A DNA stretch of 14,915 nucleotides, taken from IMG/VR virus record IMGVR_UViG_2537562091_000005. One strand, given 5' to 3'. This DNA comes from a virus. Its lineage: Duplodnaviria; Heunggongvirae; Uroviricota; Caudoviricetes. The notes below the pieces were generated by a model. That model did not search any database. It saw nothing but the letters and a program-made list of their open reading frames with translations, and had not been told where the DNA came from. How positions within the stretch are numbered: the stretch's first letter is position 1; each line of letters opens with the position of its first letter. Positions 1,742-14,915 of this stretch are shown in pieces. The position numbers and the translations under genes are program-made.

Positions 1742-1995
1742 GAACACCTCCATTATTATTTCCAGTGGTTCGTTTATTCCATCTTTCGAGTGCTTCTTTT
1801 TCACTTCCACCATAACCGGTTCGGGATTCGCATCCGTTACCCTGGAACGCCGTGCATTACTGGCGGCGCAGGAAGCGTTAAGTACGGCAATTGATGCGCA
1901 TGATGATGCAGTCCAAGCCGTTTACCGGAAAGCGCATTTCAGCGGCGGCGGTTCTCCTAGCGATTCTGTCGTAGTGCATTGATTGAAATTAATCG

Positions 1996-2445: not shown

Positions 2446-2563
2446 AAAAACGGATCAAAAAGCGTTATCTGCATCATCGTCTGCCTGTCATGGGCTGTTA
2501 ATCATTACCGTGATAACGCCACCGCCTACAAAGAGCAGCGCGACAAAAATGCCAGAGAACTGA
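2060..2563 (+). CDS. Phage protein, YdaW-like N-terminal fragment; last ~30 codons are out-of-frame Rz sequence (pseudogene-like fusion)
   Basis: ATG at 2060 with SD AAGGTGA 6 nt upstream. The N-terminal ~130 aa ([46 protein letters not shown]...) look like a real phage protein, possibly DNA-binding or replication-associated. From about 2461 the ORF reads through the Rz N-terminal region in another frame (ending ...[19 protein letters not shown]), which indicates a deletion fusion. Family assignment is uncertain. Confidence 0.5.
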
Positions 2564-2895
2564 AGCTGGCGAACGCGGCAATTACTGACATGCAGATGCG
2601 TCAGCGTGATGTTGCTGCGCTCGATGCAAAATACACGAAGGAGTTAGCTGATGCGAAAGCTGAAAATGATGCTCTGCGTGATGATGTTGCCGCTGGTCGT
2701 CGTCGGTTGCACATCAAAGCAGTCTGTCAGTCAGTGCGTGAAGCCACCACCGCCTCCGGCGTGGATAATGCAGCCTCCCCCCGACTGGCAGACACCGCTG
2801 AACGGGATTATTTCACCCTCCGGGAACGACTGGTAATGATGCAGGCCCAACTTGAAGGTGCTCAGCAATACATAACCGAACAGTGTTTAAAGTAA
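2464..2895 (+). pseudogene. rzpR: Rz-like inner-membrane spanin gene, 5'-truncated (start and first ~12 codons lost)
   Basis: The frame open from 2431 translates to ...[102 protein letters not shown]..., which I recognise as lambda Rz from its TM segment onward. There is no start codon upstream of the TM segment; the first ATG (2590) gives a 101-aa product lacking the membrane anchor. Confidence 0.8.
2651..2836 (+). CDS. rzoR: Rz1-like outer-membrane lipoprotein spanin (o-spanin), 61 aa, nested in the +1 frame of Rz
   Basis: [24 protein letters not shown]... has a signal peptide with lipobox LVVVGC and a proline-rich mature part ([15 protein letters not shown]), typical of Rz1. SD AAGGAG lies 7 nt upstream of the ATG. 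The embedded arrangement inside Rz is the classical spanin architecture. Confidence 0.85.
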
Positions 2896-2981
2896 AATCT
2901 TAACTACAATATGATTCATTTTGATGATTGTTTCATAAGGAACAGTGAAGTAAGATCTAAGAGGAGTTAAATTTTATACAG

Positions 2982-3015
2982 TATAATCATAATATTGCAG
3001 CAAGGTGGTTATAAT
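2982..3015 (+). promoter_or_regulatory. Putative promoter -10 elements upstream of trkG (TATAAT at 2982..2987 and 3010..3015)
   Basis: AT-rich intergenic region with two perfect TATAAT hexamers; no good -35 match. Pattern-based only. Confidence 0.2.
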
Positions 3016-3032
3016 TGAAAGAATATTTAGAT

Positions 3033-4490
3033 ATGAATACATCTCATGTAAGAGTTGTTACTCATATGTGTGGGTTCCTGGTTTGGCTCTATAGTCTTTC
3101 AATGTTGCCACCAATGGTTGTAGCATTGTTTTATAAAGAAAAAAGCCTGTTCGTTTTCTTTATAACTTTCGTTATATTTTTTTGTATTGGTGGCGGAGCG
3201 TGGTATACAACTAAGAAATCTGGCATTCAATTACGTACCCGTGATGGGTTTATTATAATTGTAATGTTTTGGATTTTGTTTTCTGTTATTAGTGCATTCC
3301 CTTTATGGATTGACTCAGAACTTAATTTAACGTTCATTGATGCTCTGTTTGAAGGGGTTTCTGGAATAACAACAACAGGAGCAACTGTAATTGATGATGT
3401 TAGTTCATTACCTCGGGCATATTTGTACTATCGGTCACAGTTAAATTTTATAGGTGGTTTAGGAGTTATTGTTCTGGCGGTTGCTGTATTGCCATTATTG
3501 GGTATTGGTGGTGCAAAGCTTTATCAGTCAGAAATGCCGGGGCCATTTAAGGATGACAAACTCACTCCCCGCCTGGCCGATACGTCACGGACACTGTGGA
3601 TAACTTATTCTTTATTAGGTATTGCTTGTATTGTCTGTTATAGACTTGCAGGAATGCCTTTGTTTGATGCTATTTGTCACGGGATTTCCACAGTTTCGCT
3701 TGGTGGTTTCTCAACTCATAGCGAGAGTATCGGATATTTTAATAACTATTTGGTTGAGCTGGTGGCTGGTTCTTTTTCCCTGCTATCGGCTTTCAACTTC
3801 ACTCTTTGGTATATTGTTATTAGCAGGAAAACGATAAAACCTTTAATCAGAGATATTGAACTTCGTTTCTTTCTGTTAATAGCCTTAGGGGTGATCATTG
3901 TTACCTCTTTCCAGGTCTGGCATATAGGTATGTATGACTTGCATGGAAGTTTTATTCATTCGTTTTTTCTTGCCAGCTCCATGCTCACTGATAATGGTTT
4001 AGCTACGCAGGATTATGCAAGCTGGCCCACGCACACGATAGTGTTTTTGCTGTTGTCAAGTTTCTTTGGGGGATGTATAGGTTCAACTTGTGGTGGAATT
4101 AAGTCACTTCGATTTCTTATACTTTTCAAACAAAGCAAACACGAGATAAATCAGCTTTCTCATCCCAGAGCGTTGTTGAGTGTAAATGTAGGAGGGAAGA
4201 TAGTTACAGATCGTGTAATGAGGTCTGTATGGAGTTTCTTTTTTCTTTATACTCTCTTCACGGTGTTTTTTATACTGGTGTTAAATGGTATGGGATATGA
4301 TTTTCTTACATCATTTGCAACAGTGGCTGCATGTATTAATAATATGGGATTAGGTTTTGGGGCTACTGCATCGTCATTCGGAGTGCTTAATGACATTGCA
4401 AAATATTTAATGTGCATAGCTATGATTCTTGGTCGCCTTGAAATTTATCCTGTTATTATATTGTTTTCAGGTTTTTTTTGGCGCTCCTAA
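3033..4490 (+). CDS. trkG: Trk-system potassium uptake membrane protein TrkG (prophage-encoded moron), 485 aa
   Basis: Polytopic membrane protein (MNTSHVRVVTHMCGFLVWLYSLSMLPPMVVALFYKEK...) with repeated glycine-rich selectivity-filter-like motifs typical of TrkH/TrkG; recognised as Rac TrkG. Markedly AT-rich relative to neighbours. Start ambiguity: ATG 3033 has no SD, whereas in-frame TTG 3015 is preceded by AAGGTGG at a 6-nt spacing. Confidence 0.9.
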   Translation: MNTSHVRVVTHMCGFLVWLYSLSMLPPMVVALFYKEKSLFVFFITFVIFFCIGGGAWYTTKKSGIQLRTRDGFIIIVMFWILFSVISAFPLWIDSELNLTFIDALFEGVSGITTTGATVIDDVSSLPRAYLYYRSQLNFIGGLGVIVLAVAVLPLLGIGGAKLYQSEMPGPFKDDKLTPRLADTSRTLWITYSLLGIACIVCYRLAGMPLFDAICHGISTVSLGGFSTHSESIGYFNNYLVELVAGSFSLLSAFNFTLWYIVISRKTIKPLIRDIELRFFLLIALGVIIVTSFQVWHIGMYDLHGSFIHSFFLASSMLTDNGLATQDYASWPTHTIVFLLLSSFFGGCIGSTCGGIKSLRFLILFKQSKHEINQLSHPRALLSVNVGGKIVTDRVMRSVWSFFFLYTLFTVFFILVLNGMGYDFLTSFATVAACINNMGLGFGATASSFGVLNDIAKYLMCIAMILGRLEIYPVIILFSGFFWRS

Positions 4491-4576
4491 TATATGGCTG
4501 ATTTATAATTGTGAGTTTAATATTATGTTGACTCACTCATTGATCCAATACCTAACTTTACCAGCAACACCTCCGC

Positions 4577-4610
4577 CCCCAGTAGCACTGGCTGCTGGGG
4601 TGCGTTTTAT
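4577..4610 (+). terminator. Possible intrinsic terminator downstream of trkG
   Basis: CCCCAG (4577..4582) pairs with CTGGGG (4595..4600) around a 12-nt loop, followed by TGCGTTTTATT. The long loop makes it a weak candidate. Confidence 0.3.
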
Positions 4611-4627
4611 TCATAAAGCAAGGATGT

Positions 4628-5419
4628 ATGAGCGAGAAATTAAAGATAGTCTATCGCCCATTACAAGAATTGTCACCGTATGCGCACAACGCCAGGACGC
4701 ACAGCCCTGAGCAGGTGGCACAACTGGTAGAAAGTATTAAGCAATTCGGCTGGACTAATCCGGTGCTGATTGACGAAAAGGGCGAAATTATTGCGGGTCA
4801 CGGTCGTGTTATGGCGGCTGAAATGCTCAAAATGGATTCTGTTCCGGTCATTGTTCTGTCTGGCCTGACGGATGAGCAGAAAAAGGCGTACCGCCTGGCA
4901 GATAATCGCCTGCCGATGAATGCTGGCTGGGATGAAGATCTGTTGCGGATGGAGCTGTCGGACCTAATCAATGCTGATTTTGATGTCTCCCTGACAGGCT
5001 TCATCCCGACAGAAATTGATGAACTGTTGACGGATGTTTTGCCCGGTACAGGAAATGAGGAGGAGCCGTATACGACGAAAATTGATACGCCTGTTTATGA
5101 GCCGTCGGGCGGTAAACCGGATATCAGTGAACTGTACGACGATACGAAAACGCAGGAGCTGATCAGCCGGATACGTTCGGCTTCCCTTGAGCCTGATATT
5201 GAGAAATTCCTCCTGTGTGCGGCAGAACGTCACACGGTGTTTAATTTCAGCAGAATTGCGGACTATTACGCTCACGCCCCCGCTGAAATTCAGTGTTTTT
5301 TCGAGGAGTCGGCGCTGGTGATCATTGATTATCAGCAGGCTATTGAAAATGGATTTGTCCGGATGACGCAGCGCATGGTGGAGATCATGCATGGTGGTGA
5401 GGAGGAGGAATATGCGTGA
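4628..5419 (+). CDS. ParB-like nuclease N-terminal domain protein (ParB/Srx superfamily), 263 aa
   Basis: N-terminal region IVYRPLQELSPYAHNARTHSPEQVAQLVESIKQFGWTNPVLIDEKGEIIAGHGRVMAA fits the ParB N-terminal fold (conserved NAR..S and GHGR motifs), followed by an acidic C-terminal extension. AGGA lies 3 nt upstream of the ATG. No methyltransferase motifs are visible. Confidence 0.7.
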   Translation: MSEKLKIVYRPLQELSPYAHNARTHSPEQVAQLVESIKQFGWTNPVLIDEKGEIIAGHGRVMAAEMLKMDSVPVIVLSGLTDEQKKAYRLADNRLPMNAGWDEDLLRMELSDLINADFDVSLTGFIPTEIDELLTDVLPGTGNEEEPYTTKIDTPVYEPSGGKPDISELYDDTKTQELISRIRSASLEPDIEKFLLCAAERHTVFNFSRIADYYAHAPAEIQCFFEESALVIIDYQQAIENGFVRMTQRMVEIMHGGEEEEYA

Positions 5420-5498
5420 TGATTTTTGCGCCTTTATTCTGACTCACGGGCGACCGGACAAAGTTCTGACTTACCGAACGTTGCGTCGTGCTGGCTAG
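5412..5498 (+). pseudogene. 28-codon gene stub (MRDDFCAFILTHGRPDKVLTYRTLRRAG) with strong SD, likely remnant 5' end of a deleted or frameshifted gene
   Basis: ATG at 5412 is preceded by GGAGGAGGAA and overlaps the ParB-like stop (5417..5419), a coupled arrangement. It stops after 28 codons at TAG 5496..5498. The long capsid ORF is in a different frame. Confidence 0.3.
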
Positions 5499-6544
5499 CA
5501 AAAAACGCAAAAGCTGACGCCGCAGCAAAAGATCAGACGGTAACCGCGCCAGTTGCGCCTGAGGCGAAAACCGAAGATATCGTACCGGGGCCGTCAGCTC
5601 CGAATACCGGTGATCAAAATATTGGCACTGTTGATGTGAAAATTACTAAATCCAAAATGGCACCGGTTAAATGGAATGGTGAAGAACAACTGGCTCTTGG
5701 CCCTTCAGGGACTTACAACACCATTCTGGCTGATCAGTTTAAGCAGGCTTTTCGCGCCCTTGCAAACGAGGTTGAGGCTGATCTTGGTGCGTTGTATTTC
5801 GGTGCTTCCCGCGCCGTGGGAACCGCAGGGACAACGCCGTTTGGTGTTAAAGATGATCTTTCTGATGCTGCTCTGGCTCGTCAGGTTCTGGAGGATAACG
5901 GCGCACCGACAACCGATCTGCAGATGGTGCTTGGCTCCAGTGCCATTGCTAATTTGCGCGGAAAACAGTCTGTACTGTTTAAAGTGAATGAATCCGGCAC
6001 TGAACAGCTACTGCGTGAGGGCGTGTTGGGGCGTCTGGAGGGATTCAATATTCACAGTTCGGCAGGTGTAAAACGAGCGCCAAAGGTTGCTGCAACTGGT
6101 TATCTCGTGAATGGCGAGAAAAAAGAAGGCGATGTTCTTATTTCCATTGATACTGGTTCGGGGAGTATTTCTGCAGGTCAGATTGTTACGTTCGCTGGCG
6201 ATCCGAATCAGTATGTTGTGGCAGCAGCGACCAGCAATCTGATTACTCTTGCAGCGCCCGGACTGCGTCAGGATCTGGCCGATGATACTGCAATCACAGT
6301 TGTTGGCTCCTTTACTGCAAATATGGCGTTTGATCGCAACGCGTTTCTGCTGGCATCCCGTACTCCGGCAATGCCGGAAGGTGGCGATAATGCTGATGAT
6401 GTAATGAATGTTACGGACCCGATTTCAGGGATTACGTTCCAGATTGCACTGTATCGTCAGTATCGCCAGGTGCGCTATGAAGTTGGACTGGCATGGGGTG
6501 TTTCATCAGTGAAGCCGGCACATGGTTGTCTGATTCTTGGTTAA
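5426..6544 (+). CDS. Phage major capsid protein, P22-coat-like family; 5' end appears damaged (no ATG or SD in frame until codon 78)
   Basis: 372-codon frame with segments resembling P22 coat protein from memory (FRALANEVEADLG vs P22 ARKLANNVELKVA; GQIVTFAGD insertion-domain-like region; C-terminal GLAWGVSS). The frame opens at 5423 after a TGA; the only early starts are TTG 5426 (17 nt from the SD) and unsupported GTG 5636 and ATG 5657. Probably a pseudogene or frameshifted gene. Confidence 0.5.
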   Translation: MRLYSDSRATGQSSDLPNVASCWLAKNAKADAAAKDQTVTAPVAPEAKTEDIVPGPSAPNTGDQNIGTVDVKITKSKMAPVKWNGEEQLALGPSGTYNTILADQFKQAFRALANEVEADLGALYFGASRAVGTAGTTPFGVKDDLSDAALARQVLEDNGAPTTDLQMVLGSSAIANLRGKQSVLFKVNESGTEQLLREGVLGRLEGFNIHSSAGVKRAPKVAATGYLVNGEKKEGDVLISIDTGSGSISAGQIVTFAGDPNQYVVAAATSNLITLAAPGLRQDLADDTAITVVGSFTANMAFDRNAFLLASRTPAMPEGGDNADDVMNVTDPISGITFQIALYRQYRQVRYEVGLAWGVSSVKPAHGCLILG

Positions 6545-6554
6545 ACATTCAAAC

Positions 6555-6576
6555 GGGGCTTCGGCCCCATTTTTAA
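6555..6576 (+). terminator. Intrinsic terminator immediately downstream of the capsid gene
   Basis: GGGGC (6555..6559), TTCG tetraloop, GCCCC (6564..6568), then ATTTTTAA, beginning 11 nt after the capsid stop. Confidence 0.6.
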
Positions 6577-6586
6577 TGGAGGGCAT

Positions 6587-6763
6587 ATGGCCGGATTAAC
6601 TAAAGAGCAAAGAGCACAGCGTGAAGCCGCACAAAAAACGCAAATTGAGTTAGTGGTTATGGTGACCGATTATCAGATGTTTCCCGGCGCACCAACTATC
6701 GCTAATGTTCATCCTGATGAAGTTGACAACTGGAAGGCTATGGGCTGGAAAACTCAGGAGTAA
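6587..6763 (+). CDS. Small hypothetical phage protein, 58 aa (not in ORF track)
   Basis: ATG 6587 preceded by GGAGG (4-nt spacer); translation MAGLTKEQRAQREAAQKTQIELVVMVTDYQMFPGAPTIANVHPDEVDNWKAMGWKTQE; stop TAA 6761..6763, 3 nt before the next gene start. It fills the capsid-connector gap with gene-like spacing. Confidence 0.45.
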   Translation: MAGLTKEQRAQREAAQKTQIELVVMVTDYQMFPGAPTIANVHPDEVDNWKAMGWKTQE

Positions 6764-6766
6764 CAC

Positions 6767-7162
6767 ATGATCACTTACGTGACCTGTGATGACGTTGATA
6801 ATGCGTTTGGGAACGCCTGGACGAGTGAGAACGCTAAAAATAAAGCTGTTTTAATGGCTAATGCCTGGCTTAATGGCTTCAACCTGAAAATTAACCCATC
6901 CCGTATTCCGGAAGAGGTAAAACTTGCGGGAGCATATGCAGCCAGAATTGCCTCATTCGGTAAGTTGTTTCAGCAGAAAAATGATTCTGGCGTTGTTATC
7001 AGTAAAGCCGTGTCGGCTGACGGGGTCAGTGTATCGAAATCATTTGCTGAGTTGCCATCAAACAGCACTGTATTGCTTGAACCCGATTTACAGCTTGCGA
7101 TAGCACTGCTGAAACCGTACGGACTTAGTCGCTCACAAGTCAGGGTTGTGAGGGGGGGATAA
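6767..7162 (+). CDS. Putative head-tail connector / head completion protein (gp6-like), 131 aa
   Basis: Compact ORF following the capsid gene; assignment rests on position in the head-completion cassette and size, with no confident motif. Confidence 0.45.
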   Translation: MITYVTCDDVDNAFGNAWTSENAKNKAVLMANAWLNGFNLKINPSRIPEEVKLAGAYAARIASFGKLFQQKNDSGVVISKAVSADGVSVSKSFAELPSNSTVLLEPDLQLAIALLKPYGLSRSQVRVVRGG

Positions 7163-7545
7163 TGGGGCTTCGTGAAGAGATTCAGTCAGAGGTTGCCGCT
7201 GCTTTTGATGAGGATTTAGCGGACGCCGTGAGTGATTTTTCTGGTTCTTACGTTACGCACCGGCACTGGGATCCTGTGACGGAAACTGGCGGCGAATCCA
7301 CCGCAATCTATACCGGGCGAGGCGTGTTGACACGTTATAAGCTGGGCAGAATTGATGGGATTAATATTTTGCATGGTGACCTTAAATTAACCGCTCTGGT
7401 ATGCGAGGTTACGGATAAACCAGCTGTCGACCATATTATTGAGATTTATGATCCTGTATCAAGGCAGTTACAACGATACGAGGTAATTACAGCAAGTGTA
7501 GATCCTTCCGCATCAGTTTACTCTATCCAGTTAAGGAGAGCGTAA
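7162..7545 (+). CDS. Putative head-tail joining / head closure protein, 127 aa
   Basis: Start overlaps the upstream stop (TAATG) with a G-rich SD (AGGGGGGGA). Function assigned from position and size only. Confidence 0.45.
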   Translation: MGLREEIQSEVAAAFDEDLADAVSDFSGSYVTHRHWDPVTETGGESTAIYTGRGVLTRYKLGRIDGINILHGDLKLTALVCEVTDKPAVDHIIEIYDPVSRQLQRYEVITASVDPSASVYSIQLRRA

Positions 7546-7926
7546 ATGGCAAAGGCATGGGATATAGAACCGTCAATATTTGCCGGGATGATTGAGGAAG
7601 ATGTAGGGCTGAAGATTCGCTACATCGCTATTCAGATTCTTACTGCTATTGATATTGCTGCTCCGGTTGATACCGGACGTTTCAGAAATAACAACCTGGT
7701 GTCGTTACAGCATCCCGATTTTGGTATATCTGATAACGTGGATCCGAACGGTACGATTGCTGTTCAGCGTGGGATCGGGGTTATTTCGAAAGCTGCAAAT
7801 TACGGAGTTATTTATATCCAGAATAACCTTCCTTATGCAGAGACTCTTGAAAACGGTCATTCACAACAAGCGCCAACTGGCGTGTATGCCAACGCTTTTC
7901 ATGGTGTTTTACAGGCTTACAAATGA
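7546..7926 (+). CDS. HK97 gp10-like neck / tail-completion protein, 126 aa
   Basis: Contains PVDTGRFRNN and LPYAETLENG, resembling the gp10-family signature (DTG..R ... YA..vE.G) from memory. Starts immediately after the upstream stop. Confidence 0.6.
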   Translation: MAKAWDIEPSIFAGMIEEDVGLKIRYIAIQILTAIDIAAPVDTGRFRNNNLVSLQHPDFGISDNVDPNGTIAVQRGIGVISKAANYGVIYIQNNLPYAETLENGHSQQAPTGVYANAFHGVLQAYK

Positions 7927-8360
7927 CGTTTACTGAAATCAGAAATACGGTTATTTCCAGAATGACGGCACAGACGATTATTGATGGAAAAGACGTATTG
8001 TATCCGAACGCGCCAACGTTCGATCCTTCCGGTAAGTTAATCTGGGCGCGGTTAAGTAATATTCCCGGGCAGGCTGGAGTTAATGAAATTGGCGCGGGGC
8101 CGATTGTTTATCGCACGGGGATAATCATTATTCAGTTATTTGTCCCCGCAGGTTCTGGTTCAAAACTCATTACTGAGACAGCCGATAAATTGCGGGAACT
8201 GTTTGAGTTTCAGGATGACGATCGTCTCAGTTACCAGGCTGTTTCCTCAACCAGCCAGACTACTGCGGACAGAATAACAGCACATAATTTACGCATAATT
8301 ACCTCTCGCTTTTCTGCAATAAAAAAGGCGCCATTTCTGGCGCCCGTATCTGGGTTATAA
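7923..8360 (+). CDS. Putative tail terminator / neck protein, 145 aa; 3' end runs through an opposite-strand terminator (possibly chimeric C-terminus)
   Basis: ATGA overlap with the upstream gene. The last ~15 codons (…SAIKKAPFLAPVSGL) are encoded by the hairpin that serves as terminator of the convergent J fragment, so the C-terminus may derive from a rearrangement joint. Confidence 0.45.
   Translation: MTFTEIRNTVISRMTAQTIIDGKDVLYPNAPTFDPSGKLIWARLSNIPGQAGVNEIGAGPIVYRTGIIIIQLFVPAGSGSKLITETADKLRELFEFQDDDRLSYQAVSSTSQTTADRITAHNLRIITSRFSAIKKAPFLAPVSGL
8320..8344 (-). terminator. Intrinsic terminator for the minus-strand J fragment
   Basis: On the minus strand: GGCGCCA, GAAA loop, TGGCGCC, then TTTTTTATT, beginning about 20 nt past the J stop (stem at plus 8327..8333 and 8338..8344; A-run 8321..8326). 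Confidence 0.6.
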
Positions 8361-8363
8361 AAT

Positions 8364-10925
8364 TCAGCTAATCGTGATGCCTGCAGTGGCTTTCTTCATC
8401 ACAACAACCAGCAAATCGCTGATACTTGCTGTGGGATACCAACCATTTACCCACCATGCTGATACAGAAAACTCCAGTGTCATTACGCCACTGCCTGCTG
8501 GCATATCAATAACACCCGTGTAAATCAGAGTATTATCCAGAGCCGTTCGGTTATAAATTTCAGCCCCGTTTTTCTTCACTATCAGGCGGCATGACGAATA
8601 AGTATCGCTATTCTCCCGCTCATGTCTGGCACCGCTGAAAGCCACCGCTGGAATAACAATTTGCCGGTCAAACGGCTGATCGTCATAAACCCTGACGGTA
8701 ATGGTCCCTGATGGCCACCGCTCCGGTGCACGGGAGTCCCGGGGGAAAGCTTTGCCCACTGTTTTAACGAGATCGCCTTCAATCTGGTTCGCGGACAGTT
8801 TTCCCAGAACCCGACAGTTCTCGTTAATCGTGACGTTGTTGAGCGTCCCGGAGTTCGCATTCACGCTACCGCTGATATCGGCATTTTTCGCCGTCAGCCG
8901 CCCGTCCGGTGTCAGGGAAAATGCCGGAGGATTACCGCCGCTGGTAATGGTCGGAGCCGTCAGGCGTTTCAGGAACACGTCGTTCATGAATATCTGATCG
9001 CCCTGACCAACAAACATTGGTCTTGTGTTGCCATTAGACGGATCAATAAACGCGATACGGTTAGCGGCAACCAGGAACTGGCTCAGTTTGCCTTCCTCCG
9101 TATCCTCCATGCTGAGGCCAAGCCCCGCGACATAATGCCTGCCGTCTTCGGTCTGCTCAATTTTGACGCCCCACATGGCATTCCATTTATCGTTGGCGTC
9201 TTTCCACTCTTTCGAAAACTCCTCCAGTTTGCTGGCGTTATCCTCCGTCAGCTCGACTTTTTCCAGCAGCTCATTGCCGAGATGGGATTCGGTTATCTGG
9301 CCTTTGAAAAAATCCAGGTAACCTTCCGCATCATCGCTCGCCCGACCAACAGCCTCCACGAATGCCGATTTGCCGACGGTGTTCACACTGCGGATATAAA
9401 AGTAATAATCACGGCCCGGTTTGATATTGGTACTGGCGGCTATCCAGTACAGCGCCGTGCCAAGATAGCGGGCTGTGGTTTCAACCTGTCTGATATCAGC
9501 AACCCGCTTTTCCGAGAACCAGAACTCAAACTGTACCGTCGGATCATAAACGGCAAGATACGGCGTGGCGGTTATCTGAAAATAGCCCGGCGTCAGCTCA
9601 ATCCGCGACGGTGCTGCCGGTGCGGCAATCCGGAACGATACCGATGCCGGATCGCCCTGCTGTCCCCACGCATTTGCCGCCCGGACTGTCAGCCTGTAGT
9701 TCCCCAGCGCCAGCTGCCTGAAGCGGTATGTGTTTTCCGTCGTCCTGGCCGTGCTGACCAGCCGCTCACTGCCGTCGTCCGCTGCCACGGTCAGGCGAAG
9801 CATAAAGCTCACCCCCTTCACCACCTTCGGCGTGTCCCAGCGCGCCAGCACCTGATATTCCCCGCTGTCTGCGGTGACTTCGGCAGTCAGGTGCTGCACT
9901 GCTGGCGGCGTGACACCATTCACCGTGCCGCTCTGGTCGCCGTCAAAGTGCGCCCCGTTATCCACGATGGCTTCTTTTTCCGGTACATGCTGCACGGCGG
10001 TGATGGCATACGTGCCGTCGTCGTTCTCACGGATACTCACGCAGCGGAACAGGCGCTGGCGCAGCGTCGGCAGCTTCAGCCCCCACACGCTGTATCCGGC
10101 AACGCCGTCAGGAACACGACTCACTTTTACCTTCACGCCGTCGGTGACGGACTGGACCTCCACGCTGACCGGATTGCCACTTCCGTCAACCAGGCTTATC
10201 AGCGTGGTACCGGAGGATGGCAGCGTGATTTCACGGTCGAGCGTCAGCGTCCGGGTCTGGCTGTTCACCGCCAGCACGCGCCCGCCGATGCTGATACCCG
10301 CATAGTCATCATCGCAGATTTCAATGACATCCCCCGGTACATGGCGAAGCCCTTCTGCGCCCACGCTGAAGTCCACGGTCTGCGTTTCCAGCAGCTCCGT
10401 TTTAATCAGCCACAGCCCGGCGCGGTGTGCCTGCCCCCGACTGGTACAGCCAAAGGCATCCATCTTCGTGACGTTACGGCCGTAACGGGCAATGGCCTGC
10501 GTATCCTCCACGAGCTCTGTCGCCGTCTCCCAGCCGTTATCCGGGTCAATCCAGTTCACCTCAACGGCATTATGGCGGTCCTTCAGGGCGCTGAAGCTGT
10601 AGCGGAACGGCGCGCCATCATCCGGCATCACCACATTACTGCGGTTATAGGTCCACACCTTATCCGACGGTCGGTCCTGCACGAACGTCAGCGTCTGCCC
10701 GTTCCATACCGGCATACAGCGCATCGCCGAGCAGAAATCACTGAGCACATCCCACGCCTTGCGCTGTGTGGTCAGCCAGGCATTACAGGTAATGCGCGGC
10801 TCCGTGCCGCCAAAGCCGTCCGGCACTGACTGGTCGCAGTACTGGCCGATGACATACAGCGCCCATTTGTCCACATCCGCCGCACCAAGACGTTTCCCCA
10901 TGCCGTAGCGCGGGTGGGTCAGCAT
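8364..10925 (-). pseudogene. Lambda J-like host-specificity / tail-tip protein, N-terminally truncated and inverted relative to lom and stf
   Basis: From [50 protein letters not shown]... to the C-terminus the translation closely matches lambda gpJ as I recall it, including FN3-like repeats and the C-terminal receptor-binding region. About 280 N-terminal residues of a ~1130-aa J are absent. The ORF-track extension to 11030 (GTG start, 35 non-J codons) is antisense to lom and has no SD. Confidence 0.8.
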
Positions 10926-11171
10926 ATGGCTTACAGCCGAGTGTCGACCTTCTCCGGGGATTATCTCCGCGTAACTGACAACAAGGGGAAAACGCACGAT
11001 GTGCTGACCGGAAGTGATGACGGTCGCCACAGCAATACGTCTCTGGCGTGGGGGGCTGGCGTGCAGTTTAACCCGACCGAATCCGTGGCCATTGATATTG
11101 CTTATGAAGGCTCCGGCAGTGGTGACTGGCGCACTGACGGTTTCATCGTGGGTGTCGGTTATAAATTCTGA
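10926..11171 (+). pseudogene. lom (Ail/Lom family outer-membrane protein) 3' fragment, last ~81 codons only
   Basis: C-terminus ...[43 protein letters not shown] matches the Lom/Ail beta-barrel C-terminus with terminal Phe. The signal peptide and N-terminal two-thirds are missing. Confidence 0.8.
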
Positions 11172-11197
11172 TTAGCCAGGTAACACAGTGTTATGAC

Positions 11198-11226
11198 AGC
11201 CCGCCGGTTCAGGCGGGCTTTTTTGT
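11198..11226 (+). terminator. Intrinsic terminator downstream of the lom fragment
   Basis: AGCCCGCC (11198..11205), GGTTCA loop, GGCGGGCT (11212..11219), then TTTTTTG. Confidence 0.65.
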
Positions 11227-11235
11227 GGAGTGGAT

Positions 11236-13587
11236 ATGGCAGCAGTAAAAATCTCAGGTGTGCTGAAAGATGGTGCGGGAAAACCAATACAGAACTGCAC
11301 TATTCAACTGAAGGCAAAGCGTAACAGCACCACGGTACTGGTGAACACGGTGGCCTCTGAAAATCCGGATGAAGCCGGGCGTTACAGCATGGATGTTGAG
11401 TATGGCCAGTACAGTGTCATCCTGCTGGTTGAAGGTTTTCCGCCTTCACATGCCGGGACCATTACCGTCTATGAAGGTTCCAGACCAGGTACGCTGAATG
11501 ATTTTCTTGGTGCCATGACGGAGGATGATGCCCGTCCGGAGGCACTGCGCCGTTTTGAACTGATGGTGGAAGAAGCAGCACGCAACGCTGAAGCCGCCTC
11601 TCAGAGCGCAGCGGCGGCAAAGAAATCCGAAACTGCAGCGGCATCATCGAAGAACGCGGCGAAAACCTCAGAAACGAATGCAGCTAATAGTGCACAGGCG
11701 GCAGCGACCTCACAGACTGCATCAGCAAACTCCGCGACAGCAGCCAAAAAATCAGAAACCAACGCGAAAAACAGCGAGACAGCCGCAAAGACGAGCGAAA
11801 CCAACGCAAAGTCCAGCCAGACGGCAGCGAAAACCAGCGAAACGAATGCCAAAGCCAGTGAAACTGCGGCAAAAAACAGCCAGGTTGCGGCAGCCGGTTC
11901 TGCGACTTCAGCAGCTGGATCAGCAACTGCTGCGGCTAACAGCCAGAAAGCTGCGAAGACGAGTGAAACTAACGCAAAGTCCAGCCAGACGGCAGCGAAG
12001 ACCAGCGAAACGAATGCCAAAGCCAGCGAAACTGCGGCGAAAAACAGCCAGGATGCAGCAGCCCAAAGCGAGAGTGCCGCAGCTGGTTCTGCAAGTGCGG
12101 CGGCTTCTTCTGCCACTGCATCAGCCAACAGTCAAAAAGCAGCAAAAACCAGTGAAACCAACACAAAGGCGAGCGAGACTGCGGCGACTAACTCGGCGAA
12201 AGCATCCGCTGCAAGCCAGATGGCTGCAAAAGCAAGTGAAGACGCAGCCAGAGAGTATGCAAGCCAGGCAGCAGAGCCGTATAAATATGTCTTACAGCCA
12301 CTGCCTGATGTGTGGATACCGTTTAATGACTCGATGGATATGATTACAGGATTTGGCCCGGGATATAAAAAAATAACAGTGCGCGATGATGTGGTCACTA
12401 TACCATCCGACAAAATTGTCCCGTTTTCCCGCGCGAGTTCCGCGACCTATATCAATAAGTCCGGCGCTCTTACCATTGCAGAAATTAATGAGCCACGTTT
12501 TGAAAAAGAAGGGCTGTTAATTGAAGGGCAGAGAACAAATTACTTCACAAACTCAAACGCTCCGGAATTGTGGAATAAAAATCCAGGCCTGAAGATAAGC
12601 GAGACAAAAACCGATTCCAGGGGTTTTAAATATGCAACGTTTACCCCAGAAAAATATTTAGATAGTTCTGGCTCATATGGAATTATATCAGGGGCAGCAG
12701 CAAATAAGATAGCGGTAGTCAAAAATGATGCAGTTACAATATCCTTTAGAGCAAAAGGGGATAATGTAAGATTTGCGGCTAGATTTGATAAAGGGGATTC
12801 GCCAGTTGCTGTAGCTGCCATTTTTATTGATAGCGCCACACTAGATACATTCACGTCTGGAGCAGATGCGTCTAATATTGCTGTGAAAAATGTTGTTCGT
12901 GACGGTGAGTGGGTTGCTGTAGAGGCTGTTTATAAAGTAACAGACGACTCTACATATATTAACGGCGCCATTCTGATGTCAAACAAACTGGGTGCTAATT
13001 TTGATAAGACTAGTTTTATGGATGTAACCACCCCTCAAATAGAGCTAGGTTCTTGCTTATCATCATTTATTGTCACTCCAGGTGTTCCTGCGACAAGGGC
13101 GAGTGATATGGTTATTTTTTCAACCAGAAATAACATAAGTTCTGTCCCTTTAAGCTGTCTTGTTGAAATACATAAAAATTGGGACTCTACGCCAAATCAG
13201 GCCCCACGAATTTTAACCACTATTGGCGTGGCGACTAATGATGAACAACTGGTATTGGCTTTCAGGACGCCTACAAGTCCGGATGTAGAACCTTTACCTT
13301 ATGTTCAGTTTGGAGTGAGATCTGCATATCTTAGTCCATCTGTGAAGGCCGGGCGCAAAATGATTGCTGGTTTTGTCTGTAATAGCTCGACTGAATTTCG
13401 TTGCTGTTGTAATGGTTACCTGTCACCTGTTCAGACTTCGTCATGGAAGAATACCGGAGCTGCACATGAAATACGTATTGGGGGAACTTCTGCTGGAGGA
13501 GAACGTCACTTGTTTGGTCACGTTCGTAACCTGAGAATATGGCATAAAGAATTAACTGATGCGCAAATGGGGGAGAGTATTAAATGA
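11236..13587 (+). CDS. Side tail fibre protein, mosaic: lambda-Stf-like N-terminus, Ala/Ser/Thr tandem-repeat shaft, divergent C-terminal region with possible lectin-like (LamG/concanavalin-type) end
   Basis: ATG 11236 with GGAG 5 nt upstream (ORF track starts at in-frame GTG 11230). The N-terminal ~115 aa (MAAVKISGVLKDGAGKPIQNCTIQLKAKRNSTTVLVNTV...) match the lambda Stf N-terminus from memory. Residues ~120-330 are KTSETNAK-type repeats. The C-terminal ~450 aa are low-GC and end ...GERHLFGHVRNLRIWHKELTDAQMGESIK, reminiscent of LamG-like domain termini; no His-rich GxHxH motifs. Confidence 0.8.
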   Translation: MAAVKISGVLKDGAGKPIQNCTIQLKAKRNSTTVLVNTVASENPDEAGRYSMDVEYGQYSVILLVEGFPPSHAGTITVYEGSRPGTLNDFLGAMTEDDARPEALRRFELMVEEAARNAEAASQSAAAAKKSETAAASSKNAAKTSETNAANSAQAAATSQTASANSATAAKKSETNAKNSETAAKTSETNAKSSQTAAKTSETNAKASETAAKNSQVAAAGSATSAAGSATAAANSQKAAKTSETNAKSSQTAAKTSETNAKASETAAKNSQDAAAQSESAAAGSASAAASSATASANSQKAAKTSETNTKASETAATNSAKASAASQMAAKASEDAAREYASQAAEPYKYVLQPLPDVWIPFNDSMDMITGFGPGYKKITVRDDVVTIPSDKIVPFSRASSATYINKSGALTIAEINEPRFEKEGLLIEGQRTNYFTNSNAPELWNKNPGLKISETKTDSRGFKYATFTPEKYLDSSGSYGIISGAAANKIAVVKNDAVTISFRAKGDNVRFAARFDKGDSPVAVAAIFIDSATLDTFTSGADASNIAVKNVVRDGEWVAVEAVYKVTDDSTYINGAILMSNKLGANFDKTSFMDVTTPQIELGSCLSSFIVTPGVPATRASDMVIFSTRNNISSVPLSCLVEIHKNWDSTPNQAPRILTTIGVATNDEQLVLAFRTPTSPDVEPLPYVQFGVRSAYLSPSVKAGRKMIAGFVCNSSTEFRCCCNGYLSPVQTSSWKNTGAAHEIRIGGTSAGGERHLFGHVRNLRIWHKELTDAQMGESIK
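11590..12240 (+). repeat. In-frame tandem repeats inside stf (11-aa sub-repeats; about 100-nt near-identical copies at a 168-nt period)
   Basis: The peptide AAKTSETNAKSSQTAAKTSETNAKASETAAKNSQ occurs twice, 56 codons apart (about 11786..11885 and 11954..12053). The two copies differ by six synonymous transitions. A third partial copy follows (KAAKTSETNTKASETAA). Confidence 0.75.
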
Positions 13588-13865
13588 AAGATTTAACACT
13601 CAAATTTGCAGACAGGGCCGACTTTTCGGCCTTTATGGAGAGCATTGGCTATTATGATGACGAGTCGATGCAGGATGATATTCTTATTGACGTGATAGGT
13701 AACGTGTACAAAGAAACCGGAGAACTGACTGAAGATGGCGAACCGGTATGTGTTAAGGAAGACGGATATTTTGTAAACGTGCGCATCATTAATGATTCGC
13801 AAATATCGTCATTATTCGATGAATACGTGGTTGCTGTTGAGCATCAACTTCGTGGCTGGATGTGA
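13584..13865 (+). CDS. Small acidic hypothetical protein, 93 aa (possible fibre assembly/accessory factor by position)
   Basis: ATGA start-stop overlap with stf and SD GGGGGAGAG upstream. Acidic composition (MKDLTLKFADRADFSAFMESIGYYDDESMQDDILIDVIGNVYKETGELTEDGEPV...). No similarity to lambda Tfa that I can recognise. Confidence 0.55.
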   Translation: MKDLTLKFADRADFSAFMESIGYYDDESMQDDILIDVIGNVYKETGELTEDGEPVCVKEDGYFVNVRIINDSQISSLFDEYVVAVEHQLRGWM

Positions 13866-13874
13866 GGAAGAAAA

Positions 13875-14915
13875 ATGGCTACATCGACAGTAATTCCTGA
13901 TGACATCAAAACGCTAAAATCCGACGTTAGCAAATTAAAAAACGATCAAGGAAGCTACGCAACAAAATTATATGTAGACAGCAAAGATGAAATCGTTGGT
14001 GACTGGTCTGCTTCATGGTATCAGCAGGTATTGCCAACTAGCGGAGCTATATTTGGGAGAAAACTCCGCTCAACTCACAGGACGGCAGGTGTTGAGGATG
14101 CGTATTGCGAACTATACCTCAAAAAATGGATAGACAGTCCAGGTAACGCAATGGCGCGCCTTAACCTGAACGATAACGGGACAAACATTTGCTGGGACTT
14201 TACCAACCTTTATGGCGGTACGATGATTTTTCCCGGTGACAGCGGATACCTCAAAATGGGTAACTGCCTTATGTCATACAGCAAGCGTGGAAGTAACGCG
14301 CTTATTAAATTTGATTACACCGACACATTACAGATCAAATATGCCAATCATGGGTCAACCATGACATTAAACACACAGGGAACCGCTTATGCTGGTGTTA
14401 CTGCTCAATTGTGGGGCAACACCAGCCGTCCTGTTGTTTATGAAGTCGGTGTTGATGGTGGCGCTTATATGTTCTATGCGCAGAAAAATACCGATAACAC
14501 CTATATGTTAAGCGTTAATGGTGCATGTCATGCCACCGCATTTAACCAGCATTCCGACCGGGATCTGAAAGACAACATTCAGGTGATCGATAATGCAACC
14601 GACCGCATCCGTAAAATGAACGGCTATACATACACGCTTAAAGAAAACGGTATGCCCTATGCTGGTGTCATTGCACAGGAAGCTCTGGAAGCAATCCCAG
14701 AAGTTGTAGGTTCCGCAATGAAATATCAGGACGGTGCAAGCGGATCGGAAGGTGAAGAAGGTGAACGTTATTACACAGTAGATTATTCTGGTGTTACTGG
14801 CTTGCTTGTTCAGGTAGCCAGAGAGTCAGACGACAGAATAACAGCACTGGAAGAAGAAAACGCAGAATTAAGACAAAGATTATCTGCAATTGAGGCGGCG
14901 CTTGCGTCTAAATAA
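13875..14915 (+). CDS. Short tail fibre/tip protein with C-terminal S74-type intramolecular chaperone (autoproteolytic) domain, 346 aa
   Basis: C-terminal ~120 aa (HSDRDLKDNIQVIDNATDRIRKMNGYTYTLKENGMPYAGVIAQEALEAIPEVVGSA...VDYSGVTGLLVQVARESDDRITALEEENAELRQRLSAIEAAL) match the Peptidase_S74 chaperone signature (Ser-x4-Lys dyad, NI..I, GxIAQE, coiled-coil tail). Predicted self-cleavage at Ser227 (codon 14553..14555). SD GAGGAAG upstream of the ATG. Confidence 0.75.
   Translation: MATSTVIPDDIKTLKSDVSKLKNDQGSYATKLYVDSKDEIVGDWSASWYQQVLPTSGAIFGRKLRSTHRTAGVEDAYCELYLKKWIDSPGNAMARLNLNDNGTNICWDFTNLYGGTMIFPGDSGYLKMGNCLMSYSKRGSNALIKFDYTDTLQIKYANHGSTMTLNTQGTAYAGVTAQLWGNTSRPVVYEVGVDGGAYMFYAQKNTDNTYMLSVNGACHATAFNQHSDRDLKDNIQVIDNATDRIRKMNGYTYTLKENGMPYAGVIAQEALEAIPEVVGSAMKYQDGASGSEGEEGERYYTVDYSGVTGLLVQVARESDDRITALEEENAELRQRLSAIEAALASK

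Follow-up and report, generated by a model that had tools for sequence, protein, structure and literature searches.

The back-to-back fragments of the J and lom genes in the 14,915-nucleotide stretch of DNA analysed here (the window) very probably arose in two steps, in which a conservative inversion of the tail module was followed by an 8,791-bp deletion that made the hexamer CATATG, in a natural, decaying Rac-type prophage and with a lom end that is not random. As read from sequence comparison, the first step is recorded in a surviving sister form and the second in a reconstruction, and the joint is ordinary prophage decay, save for the base-for-base reuse of the lom breakpoint in other prophages.

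The window as a Rac-type prophage

The window is, judging by its sequence, a heavily decayed Rac-type lambdoid prophage, integrated beside ttcA in a lineage of E. coli that is natural. Scaffold GL872249.1 of assembly GCA_000191015.1 matches it at 100% identity, and the window opens with a 411-aa integrase (1-1236) of the IntR type, on the ttcA side. The chromosomal flanks in loci L009 and L002 are ttcA and dbpA on one side and sitABCD, a uspF-type gene and a porin gene on the other, and flanks of this kind (ttcA/dbpA and sitABCD/ompN) are those of the natural Rac locus. The base-level reference was the intact Rac-type prophage of E. coli F5505-C1 (NZ_CP024257.1; L001 in the coordinates below), with which the window shares six collinear blocks, one of them inverted, at 99.5-100% identity, about 35 kb of the reference being absent; integrase, flanks and collinearity all place the window among the defective Rac-type prophages at ttcA. 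The exact parent is absent from collections, and the J segment differs at 14 sites from that of F5505-C1 and at 6 from that of HMDUC-17. The window contains no transposase or invertase ORF, and no prior description of the lineage or of the lom breakpoint was found in literature searches. The features discussed below are as follows.

1830..1843, no strand: deletion joint of the window lineage, 14-bp overlap, about 9.1 kb of reference lost (ralR side to ydaT side)
2464..2467, no strand: deletion joint of the window lineage, 4-bp overlap, about 10.6 kb lost (replication to lysis region)
5496..5497, no strand: older deletion joint, 2-bp overlap, 6,977 bp lost (terminase to capsid 5'), common to the sister form
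7923..8360, plus strand: chimeric 145-aa tail-terminator-like ORF, its last ~37 codons crossing the left inversion joint
8248..8250, no strand: left inversion joint, 3-bp overlap CAA, L001 19720-19722 joined to 8556-8558
8248..8296, minus strand: inverted lom nt 1-49 (codons 1-16), cut off from the remaining lom, mapped to L001 8556-8604
8326..8345, minus strand: terminator-like hairpin 3' of J, moved with the inverted segment
8364..10925, minus strand: 3' fragment of J (tail tip / host specificity), codons 279-1131 plus stop, 853 aa
10923..10928, no strand: CATATG hexamer, CA from J, TAT (10925-10927) shared, G from lom; probable joint of the secondary 8,791-bp deletion
10926..11171, plus strand: 3' fragment of lom, codons 119-199 plus stop, 81 aa; its 5' boundary at 10925 is the recurrent breakpoint x/TATGGCTTACAG (the slash marks the break)
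11198..11219, plus strand: lom terminator hairpin, kept

The CATATG joint

The inverted J segment (window 8248-10927) matches L001 8556-11235 at 99.5% and the lom/stf segment (window 10925-14915) matches L001 8251-4261 at 99.9%. The J homology, on the minus strand, ends at 10927 and the lom homology, on the plus strand, begins at 10925, both inside CATATG, so that the base-level comparison with F5505-C1 confirms what an earlier note on this DNA had proposed from the letters alone, namely that the two fragments lie back to back and meet within the hexamer. The overlap is, however, the 3 bp TAT (10925-10927) and not the 6-bp palindromic microhomology that had been supposed: at 10923-10924 the J parent has CA and the lom parent GG, at 10928 the lom parent has G and the J parent C, and the parental sequences, CATATC and GGTATG, have only TAT in common. 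The palindrome itself is not significant, because a palindromic hexamer is expected by chance in about 1 of 16 cases once the TAT overlap is given. The two flanks trace to distant positions of one parent with no foreign or inserted bases, and no IS end, recombinase core or long repeat is present at the joint, nor any promoter-like site. A short overlap is the mark of illegitimate joining, as had been suggested, and the TAT overlap is of this sort. Break-associated mutagenesis was considered and rejected, since both mismatches near the joint (10911 and 10914) are natural alleles.

That the hexamer is an NdeI site with an ATG in both directions raised the question of an assembly chimera or of an engineered ligation, a reading whose probability is now practically negligible. 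The site is present in neither parent, the flanks are those of the natural Rac locus, and the joint recurs across separate projects: it was found, with 0-6 mismatches, in five independent isolate or metagenome assemblies (NCBI isolate assemblies from different projects, ENA metagenome assemblies and one Logan run assembly), and the left inversion joint in 11 contigs. The engineered origin that the earlier note had kept open is thereby excluded, and its suggestion of looking for the joint in other strains is answered by the same joint in these five. None of the five joints of the window occurs in 5,426 complete E. coli genomes or in K-12, and an exact-pattern scan of GTDB species representatives returned no match to the CATATG joint.

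Remnants of J and lom and the chimeric reading frames

J and lom are co-directional in lambda, as the earlier note had it, and also in intact Rac-type prophages. The ATG codons on the two sides of the joint are native internal methionines, Met279 of J in lambda numbering and Met119 of the 199 codons of lom, so the J fragment lacks 278 N-terminal codons (about 280 had been estimated) and the 118 codons that precede Met119 in lom (59% of 199) no longer stand in front of the lom fragment; at the DNA level, homology with lambda J ends at lambda 16337. The claim that the 5' two-thirds of lom had been removed holds for the joint, where about 60% is missing, but the first 49 nt survive in inverted orientation at 8248-8296. 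J is not full length in another frame either: the longer 888-aa ORF (8364-11030, minus strand) gains only 35 non-J codons, which are the antisense of lom. Both fragments are best taken as dead remnants, each starting at a native internal Met.

At the other end of the inverted segment, the 145-aa ORF, whose intact counterpart in F5505-C1 is a tail-terminator gene of 130 aa, reads into inverted lom 5' and J-lom spacer DNA. Its product is exactly WP_000144679.1, found on 11 contigs, and RefSeq lists the chimeric products of these joints like any other protein, under the names 'tail terminator-like protein' (145 aa), 'host specificity protein J' (853 aa) and 'Ail/Lom' (81 aa).

Order of inversion and deletion

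The decisive evidence on the order of events comes from the sister form (loci L010 and L013), which is 100% identical to window 2694-9986 (7.3 kb), including the 5496 joint and the left inversion joint. These loci carry L001 19209-19722 inverted and joined at TTG to lom from 8558 onward, the exact reciprocal of the left joint, and their lom is contiguous from nt 47 through the recurrent breakpoint, with no CATATG joint. As the sister has the same left joint plus the reciprocal one, the inversion preceded the CATATG deletion. When the F5505-C1 prophage was inverted conservatively in silico, the window was obtained with a single 8,791-bp gap and L010 with a single 8,914-bp gap, and both an inversion and a deletion did take place, as previously proposed. 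One inversion breakpoint is kept in the window (8248-8250) and the other only in L010. The hexamer had wrongly been taken for the inversion breakpoint: it is the deletion joint, and the true breakpoints lie in the 3' end of the tail-terminator gene and in lom codon 16. Nor was the loss limited to pieces of J and lom, 8.8 kb being gone with the tail tube, tape measure, M, L, K, I and the 5' part of J.

The first step, then, would have been the inversion in place, between the 3-bp inverted repeat CAA...TTG and without gain or loss of a single base, of an 11,161-bp tail module that begins in the 3' end of the tail-terminator gene, contains the tail tube, tape measure, M, L, K, I and J genes and extends as far as lom codon 16. 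In the window lineage, the second step would be a single deletion of 8,791 bp that starts within inverted J, past codon 279 in backward reading, crosses the right inversion joint and stops at lom codon 118/119, the ends being joined at the 3-bp TAT overlap to leave CATATG; the sister lineage would have lost 8,914 bp of the same inverted module independently. An undeleted intermediate would carry the diagnostic joint TTCGCCAACGGCTATTGCCGCTGGTATGCC. No assembly with the full undeleted inversion was found among JGI metagenomes and complete E. coli genomes, searched for the exact pattern of the reciprocal joint, and the first step is therefore reconstructed from two differently deleted descendants. 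VE-T9 and K-12 were considered as intermediates and rejected, as they have separate decay histories associated with IS1 and IS5.

Two simpler histories have been weighed against this order. A single inversion with breakpoints in J and lom meeting at CATATG would yield the observed right joint, and a later left deletion of about 8.8 kb would complete the structure of the window, but it is contradicted by the sister form, with its same left joint, its identity over 7.3 kb, its contiguous lom and its 19722-to-8558 reciprocal joint; the left joint would need two separate origins identical to the base, which makes this history highly improbable. Serial template switching in one event (FoSTeS/MMBIR; Hastings et al. 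2009, PMC2621351), from the upstream block to J read backwards and on to the lom/stf block with microhomology at each switch, accounts for the deletion-inversion-deletion layout and for 3-bp overlaps at both joints, its classic signature (2-3 bp overlaps). It makes all joints at once and leaves no reciprocal product, whereas the sister keeps the reciprocal joint without CATATG, evidence of a perfectly reciprocal inversion intermediate; templated insertions and clustered mutations are also absent from the joints, and the one-event origin is accordingly very unlikely.

Other joints and the manner of joining

Five private joints are present in the prophage of the window, with overlaps of 14, 4, 2, 3 and 3 bp. 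That at 5496 predates the split of the lineages, since it is common to the window and the sister form, while the 1830..1843 deletion took recET, kilR and racR. Overlaps of at least 2 bp are found at 8/8 joints of both lineages (chance P=0.16 each, 3.6e-7 jointly), and no Chi site is present in the reconstructed intermediate. We infer the enzymology of the inversion and of the deletion: the most likely route would be RecA-independent illegitimate joining with 0-3 nt overlaps, either by E. coli alternative end-joining or of a template-switch type. End-joining with 1-9 nt microhomology (1-3 nt in one study) has been documented in E. coli (10.1101/605246, PMC11372144).

A recurrent breakpoint in lom

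That the lom end is a random microhomology site is not borne out. Eight unrelated left partners (inverted J, gpA, gpI, Nu1, DUF1441, ybcN and two unidentified) are joined exactly at x/TATGGCTTACAG (x/TATGG), which means that at least seven prophage deletions unrelated to that of the window have the very same base as their endpoint, and one of the eight junctions is contiguous in a finished genome. Two opposite-side (left-retained) junctions end at ...GGGTA. Microhomology deletions are expected to have scattered, non-recurrent endpoints, an expectation to which the lom end with its eight partners does not conform. As the same base is used in at least seven other deletions and both flanks keep TA, the data point to a recurrent, position-specific DNA end at G/TA/TGG, which could derive from a 2-nt staggered break or from a lost TA-duplicating insertion.

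Part of the evidence for recurrence was obtained with searches, the exact 81-aa look-up and the H+15-mer pattern, that see only that base or about 9 nt around it. It could be argued that the site is an ordinary random one whose recurrence reflects targeted searches and gene-caller behaviour in a very large database. Both discovery routes return only junctions at or within ~9 nt of the base, and other breakpoints do exist: right-retained ones lie at -306, about -300, -111, -81, -42 and -19/-10, left-retained ones are otherwise scattered over codons 102-168, and an unbiased sample of 120 IMG/VR lom loci contained two other truncations and none at the site. Against this, all five contexts fall on the same base within the ~9-nt span that the 81-aa look-up allows; IMG/VR, as independent data, has three junctions at the site and none at four control positions (for one control, among the matches listed; P ~0.008 to 4e-4), despite the searched TATGG (Met) allele being the minority one (at most 33 of 116, the Val allele, GTGTGG, accounting for 83 of 116); and the two opposite-side junctions end at the same TA. 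Ascertainment as the whole explanation is therefore considered rather unlikely.

Among genome contigs, the 15-base hot-spot pattern gave only random matches in unrelated taxa, and a longer pattern found no match in metagenome contigs; no lom stub is present in the K-12 prophages DLP12 and Qin. Two candidate hot-spot events were rejected, P0084 (a tandem triplication), in which the DNA shows a native 9-nt direct repeat, GATGGCGGG, and P0090 (a 78-nt internal deletion), in which the overlap is a TG a few bases away. The lengths of 'partial' Lom proteins at contig ends, considered as evidence of a repeat boundary, were too scattered to be used.

Candidate causes of the lom end

A tentative proposal, with somewhat less than an even chance of being right, is that GGG/TA/TGGCTTACAG (codons 118/119, Met allele) is a base-precise fragile or recombinogenic site at which some activity repeatedly makes a DNA end, end-joining then stripping away head and tail genes. 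The activity might be a nuclease with a 2-nt staggered cut, a transposase-like enzyme acting on a pseudo-end or a transient TA-duplicating insertion, and joining from the fixed lom end would cut to varying depths into the head and tail genes of Rac-, Qin- and DLP12-type prophages and leave lom 3', stf and tfa in place. Nothing that explains the site was found among DNA structures, Chi sites, IS elements and the literature. Secondary structure was rejected, the z-scores being 0.55, -0.83 and 1.69 and the one stem a GGCT/AGCC pairing of 4 bp. IS30, considered for its 2-bp duplication, was also rejected, since in lambda it has its hot spot at 33244-33498, outside lom (PMC9333248), and no palindrome is seen at the lom site.

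A Din-family serine invertase (Pin) acting on a lom pseudo-site has some attractions: pin genes lie downstream of stf/tfa in several recurrent-joint loci (L019, L022 and L025), and TA would be a symmetric 2-bp core. The sequence to the right of the site (GGCTTACAG) may also resemble a gix half-site. The prophage of the window has no pin gene, however, and neither the window nor the F5505-C1 prophage contains a resolvase or invertase ORF; the partner sites have no half-site similarity, Din-like crossover sites of the AAACC-NN-GGTTT type are absent from the loci scanned, the DUF1441 junction CCCGTA+TATGG is impossible by exchange at a 2-bp core, and the inversion sites, in contrast to those of Hin, Gin, Cin or Pin, have only CAA/TTG in common. 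Din invertases strongly disfavour deletions, and it is hard to believe that Pin made the joint. Vsr, gyrase, the topoisomerase I consensus, cos-like cleavage, type I-E CRISPR self-targeting, IS200/IS605 TTAC targeting and serine-integrase attB sites are set aside on general grounds, as their cut position, overhang or partners do not fit.

Comparison with known systems

The cryptic prophage Rac of K-12 (intR...trkG-ynaK-ydaY-ynaA-lomR-stfR-tfaR-pinR) occupies the same locus as the window, between the ttcA side and the ompN-uspF side, and shares with it the families of intR, xisR, trkG, ynaK-type ParB, lom and stf. It too has lost its structural genes by internal deletions that end inside lom, although there a tape-measure fragment (ynaA) meets lom at a point 111 nt upstream of the window's breakpoint, an IS5 lies further downstream in lomR, and no inverted J is present.

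RecA-independent illegitimate recombination, or alternative end-joining, reportedly operates in E. coli as in the model of Chayot et al. 2010 and in Ikeda's short-homology events. Like the window, such events give kilobase deletions with overlaps of 0-3 (up to 9) nt and no recombinase site or IS at the joint, but their endpoints are scattered, whereas one lom endpoint is reused to the base, and end-joining after resection does not predict the perfectly conservative inversion of the window lineage. Deletions with one end fixed are also familiar, as in the Int-promoted deletions of the lambda b region anchored at att and in the adjacent deletions anchored at IS ends. These resemble the lom site in having one invariant endpoint and variable upstream partners, and the lom flanks both keep a short duplicated TA, as after a target duplication, but at the lom site none of the loci examined has an att-like core, an integrase site, an IS or the end of one.

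Significance

The survival of two sister forms lets the order of events be read, a conservative inversion followed in each form by a deletion of its own, of about 8.8 kb in one and 8.9 kb in the other. Point substitutions, none of which is found in the 7.3 kb common to the sisters, accumulated more slowly in this lineage than kilobase deletions with overlaps of 2-14 bp. If the proposed fragile site is real, head and tail genes would be lost not by random decay but along a directed path to the disarmament or domestication of prophages. A specific activity that breaks lom at one base would help to explain why the ending lom 3' stub-stf-tfa is common among E. coli cryptic prophages, and would provide a concrete test sequence for a new source of site-specific breaks in prophage DNA.

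Origin and block structure of the prophage

The window is 100% identical to an E. coli scaffold (GL872249.1 of GCA_000191015.1) and is a Rac-type prophage, with ttcA/dbpA on one side and sitABCD/uspF/porin on the other. Strain F5505-C1 (NZ_CP024257.1) carries an intact prophage, which served as near-parent for comparison; the window aligns to it in six blocks, and about 35 kb of this reference is absent. Base-by-base reading gave overlaps of 14, 4, 2, 3 (CAA) and 3 (TAT) bp at the five joints, none of which was found in 5,426 complete E. coli genomes.

Blocks aligned to the F5505-C1 prophage and deletion joints
1-1843, block 1
1830-2467, block 2
2464-5497, block 3
5496-8250, block 4, 100% identity
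8248-10927, block 5, inverted, 99.5% identity
10925-14915, block 6, 99.9% identity
1830-1843, deletion joint, overlap 14 bp, about 9.1 kb of reference lost
2464-2467, deletion joint, overlap 4 bp, about 10.6 kb of reference lost
5496-5497, deletion joint, overlap 2 bp, about 7.0 kb of reference lost

The joint at 5496 creates a chimeric 372-aa ORF (5426-6544) ending in the 3' part of a P22-type capsid gene. The stf (side tail fibre) gene contains two tandem 168-bp units (11770-12105, 85% mutual identity). In the window lineage, sitB, about 3 kb past the end of the window (19886-19895 of the scaffold), has lost 254 bp at an overlap of about 10 bp, giving a product of 167 aa vs 275 aa undeleted; this deletion is missing in L010, a contig of the sister form discussed below.

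The CATATG joint

The earlier note had placed a J/lom joint within CATATG (10923-10928), and base-level mapping bore this out. With a 3-kb query around the hexamer, J matches in thousands of E. coli prophages stop at 10927, and with a 301-nt query across it lom matches begin only at 10925; the J parent reads ...GGGTCAGCATAT|CC and the lom parent ...GGCGGG|TATGGCTTAC, so that only TAT is common to both. The fragments start at native internal ATG codons, Met279 of 1,132 in J (lambda numbering; lambda DNA homology stops at 16337) and Met119 of 199 in lom. Given TAT, a palindromic hexamer has a chance of about 1/16. No promoter-like site was seen near the joint, and both native terminators are retained.

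ORFs created by the junctions (with public names) and terminators
7923-8360, 'phage tail terminator-like protein', 145 aa, WP_000144679.1
8364-10925, 'host specificity protein J', 853 aa, TFW08350.1
10926-11171, 'Ail/Lom family' protein, 81 aa
8326-8345, minus strand, native J terminator
11198-11219, plus strand, native lom terminator

The search for the same joint in other strains gave no joint-spanning match in the 5,426 complete E. coli genomes; the 853-aa J fragment recurs without change in five contigs of separate sources (two NCBI isolate assemblies, two ENA metagenome assemblies and one Logan run), all collinear with the window with 0-6 mismatches. The chimeric 145-aa ORF of the left joint, a RefSeq protein, occurs in 11 contigs. 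An engineered NdeI origin, which had been left open, is excluded by these separate sources and by the lack of an NdeI site in either parent: the joint is real and natural.

Inversion followed by deletion

Two of the contigs with the left-joint ORF (L010 and L013) represent a sister form, 100% identical to window 2694-9986, a stretch with the joints at 5496 and at 8248-8250 (the left joint). Beyond it, they continue with inverted J only to position 10294 of the F5505-C1 locus, then inverted 19209-19722 and then forward lom from 8558. Their final junction, ...CAACGGCTA TTG CCGCTGG..., matches the window left joint as its exact reciprocal, so that the primary event was the conservative inversion of an 11,161-bp segment between CAA (3' end of the tail-terminator gene) and TTG (lom codon 16). 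When F5505-C1 was inverted in silico, a single gap of 8,791 bp gave the window and one of 8,914 bp gave L010; the CATATG joint is therefore the scar of a secondary deletion running from inverted J, through the right inversion joint, into lom. Thus the earlier proposal holds in that an inversion and a deletion took place and the ends share a short overlap, but the hexamer derives from the secondary deletion and not from the inversion, as the reciprocal joint indicates, and the deletion, of 8,791 bp, was larger than the loss of about 280 J codons and two-thirds of lom that had been estimated.

The sister-form deletion joint (L010 12062-12064, also in L013) has a TAC overlap and removed 8,914 bp of the inverted tail module, fusing the 5' part of the tail-tube gene to J in a 679-aa ORF. 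Since neither form is derivable from the other, the two deletions, overlapping by about 8 kb, are independent, and this parallel loss could reflect selection or chance. An undeleted inversion intermediate was sought and not found. The 8-mer GGCTGGTT is a direct repeat beside both ancestral inversion breakpoints (8250-8258; about 22 nt downstream of the left breakpoint in the F5505-C1 parent), probably by coincidence, because its orientation is unsuited to mediating inversion.

Joining of the ends

Overlaps of at least 2 bp were present in all eight joints of the window and sister lineages (chance 0.16 each, 3.6e-7 jointly), and no IS, recombinase gene or long repeat was found at any of them. 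RecA-independent illegitimate recombination and alternative end-joining in E. coli use 1-9 nt of microhomology (1-3 nt in one study) and are RecBCD-dependent (PMC11372144; 10.1101/605246). The joints seem compatible with either process, and likewise with replication template switching. Resection-based joining does not predict an inversion that is conservative and lies at a 3-bp inverted repeat. The J differences from F5505-C1 comprise a 160-bp conversion patch and two natural alleles near the joint, and hence give no sign of error-prone repair.

Eleven of the 14 inverted-J differences lie within those 160 bp (9676-9834), which looks like gene conversion by a different J allele. In stf, the window lineage and L010 differ at 21 sites clustered in a similar patch (11508-11724).

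A recurrent endpoint in lom

Looking up the 81-aa lom fragment retrieved many other defective prophages (DLP12-, Qin- and other types), in which lom homology starts at the identical base, x|TATGGCTTACAGCC, after unrelated left partners.

Left partners at the lom endpoint
gpA, lambda 2618/9
gpI, lambda 15006
DUF1441/Nu1-like gene
ybcN
inverted J (window)
Nu1, lambda 697 (from IMG/VR)
two further partners without assigned identity (from IMG/VR)

The gpA|lom joint is contiguous in a finished genome (NZ_CP116929.1, 100% identity). Joints with known parents overlap by TAT, TA, TA, TA and TAT, and the DUF1441 joint by only 0-1 nt (product CCCGTA+TATGG). Two junctions of opposite polarity (L306 and L578) keep the lom 5' part to ...GGGTA|, followed by tail-fibre sequence. 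As both polarities meet at the same TA, TA is kept on both flanks, which a filled-in 2-nt 5'-staggered break, or a lost TA-duplicating insertion, would leave.

The discovery routes were position-restricted; the control data set, IMG/VR, was independent of discovery, with four other conserved positions in lom queried by the same pattern type. Three junctions were found at the hot spot, and only SNP variants, with no junction, at the four control positions (for one of them, among the matches listed), giving P of about 0.008, or 4e-4 with allele-frequency weighting, the TATGG (Met) allele being the minority (at most 33/116, vs 83/116 for the Val allele). Other breakpoints retaining the right part of lom were each seen a single time, at -306, about -300, -111 (K-12 Rac), -81, -42 and -19/-10, and the remaining left-retained ones are dispersed.

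Neither a stable DNA structure nor a Chi site was found to explain the hot spot, no IS was present there in 120 lom loci, and neither a Din-type site nor any record in the literature searched accounted for it. IS30 was rejected as the agent: it does make 2-bp duplications, but the hot spot known for it in lambda lies at 33244-33498 (PMC9333248).

Several further features of lom were recorded. A native 9-nt direct repeat, GATGGCGGG, lies at codons ~100 and ~116 (F5505-C1 ~8255-8310), 48 nt apart, and the 48-nt unit is triplicated in one assembly (L579). ATGGCGGG is also present in lambda gene A, and a gpA|lom deletion (L028) falls within this common sequence, at a distance of 10-19 nt from the hot spot. 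Four Lom N-terminal fragments (P0044, P0048, P0051 and P0093) break at codons 146, 117, 115 and 128 and share the same foreign tail, ...YFHERRSLNNFHRDRVITFEQIAE; here one partner meets lom at several points, a pattern that mirrors that of the hot spot. In K-12 Rac (L029 2390-2430), ynaA (a tape measure fragment) is joined to lomR 111 nt upstream of the hot spot, and about 38 nt of unassigned sequence separate the two homologies.

The CATATG joint is, in summary, an ordinary scar of prophage decay with a well-resolved two-step history, and of its features only the reuse of its endpoint in lom by unrelated prophages merits following up.
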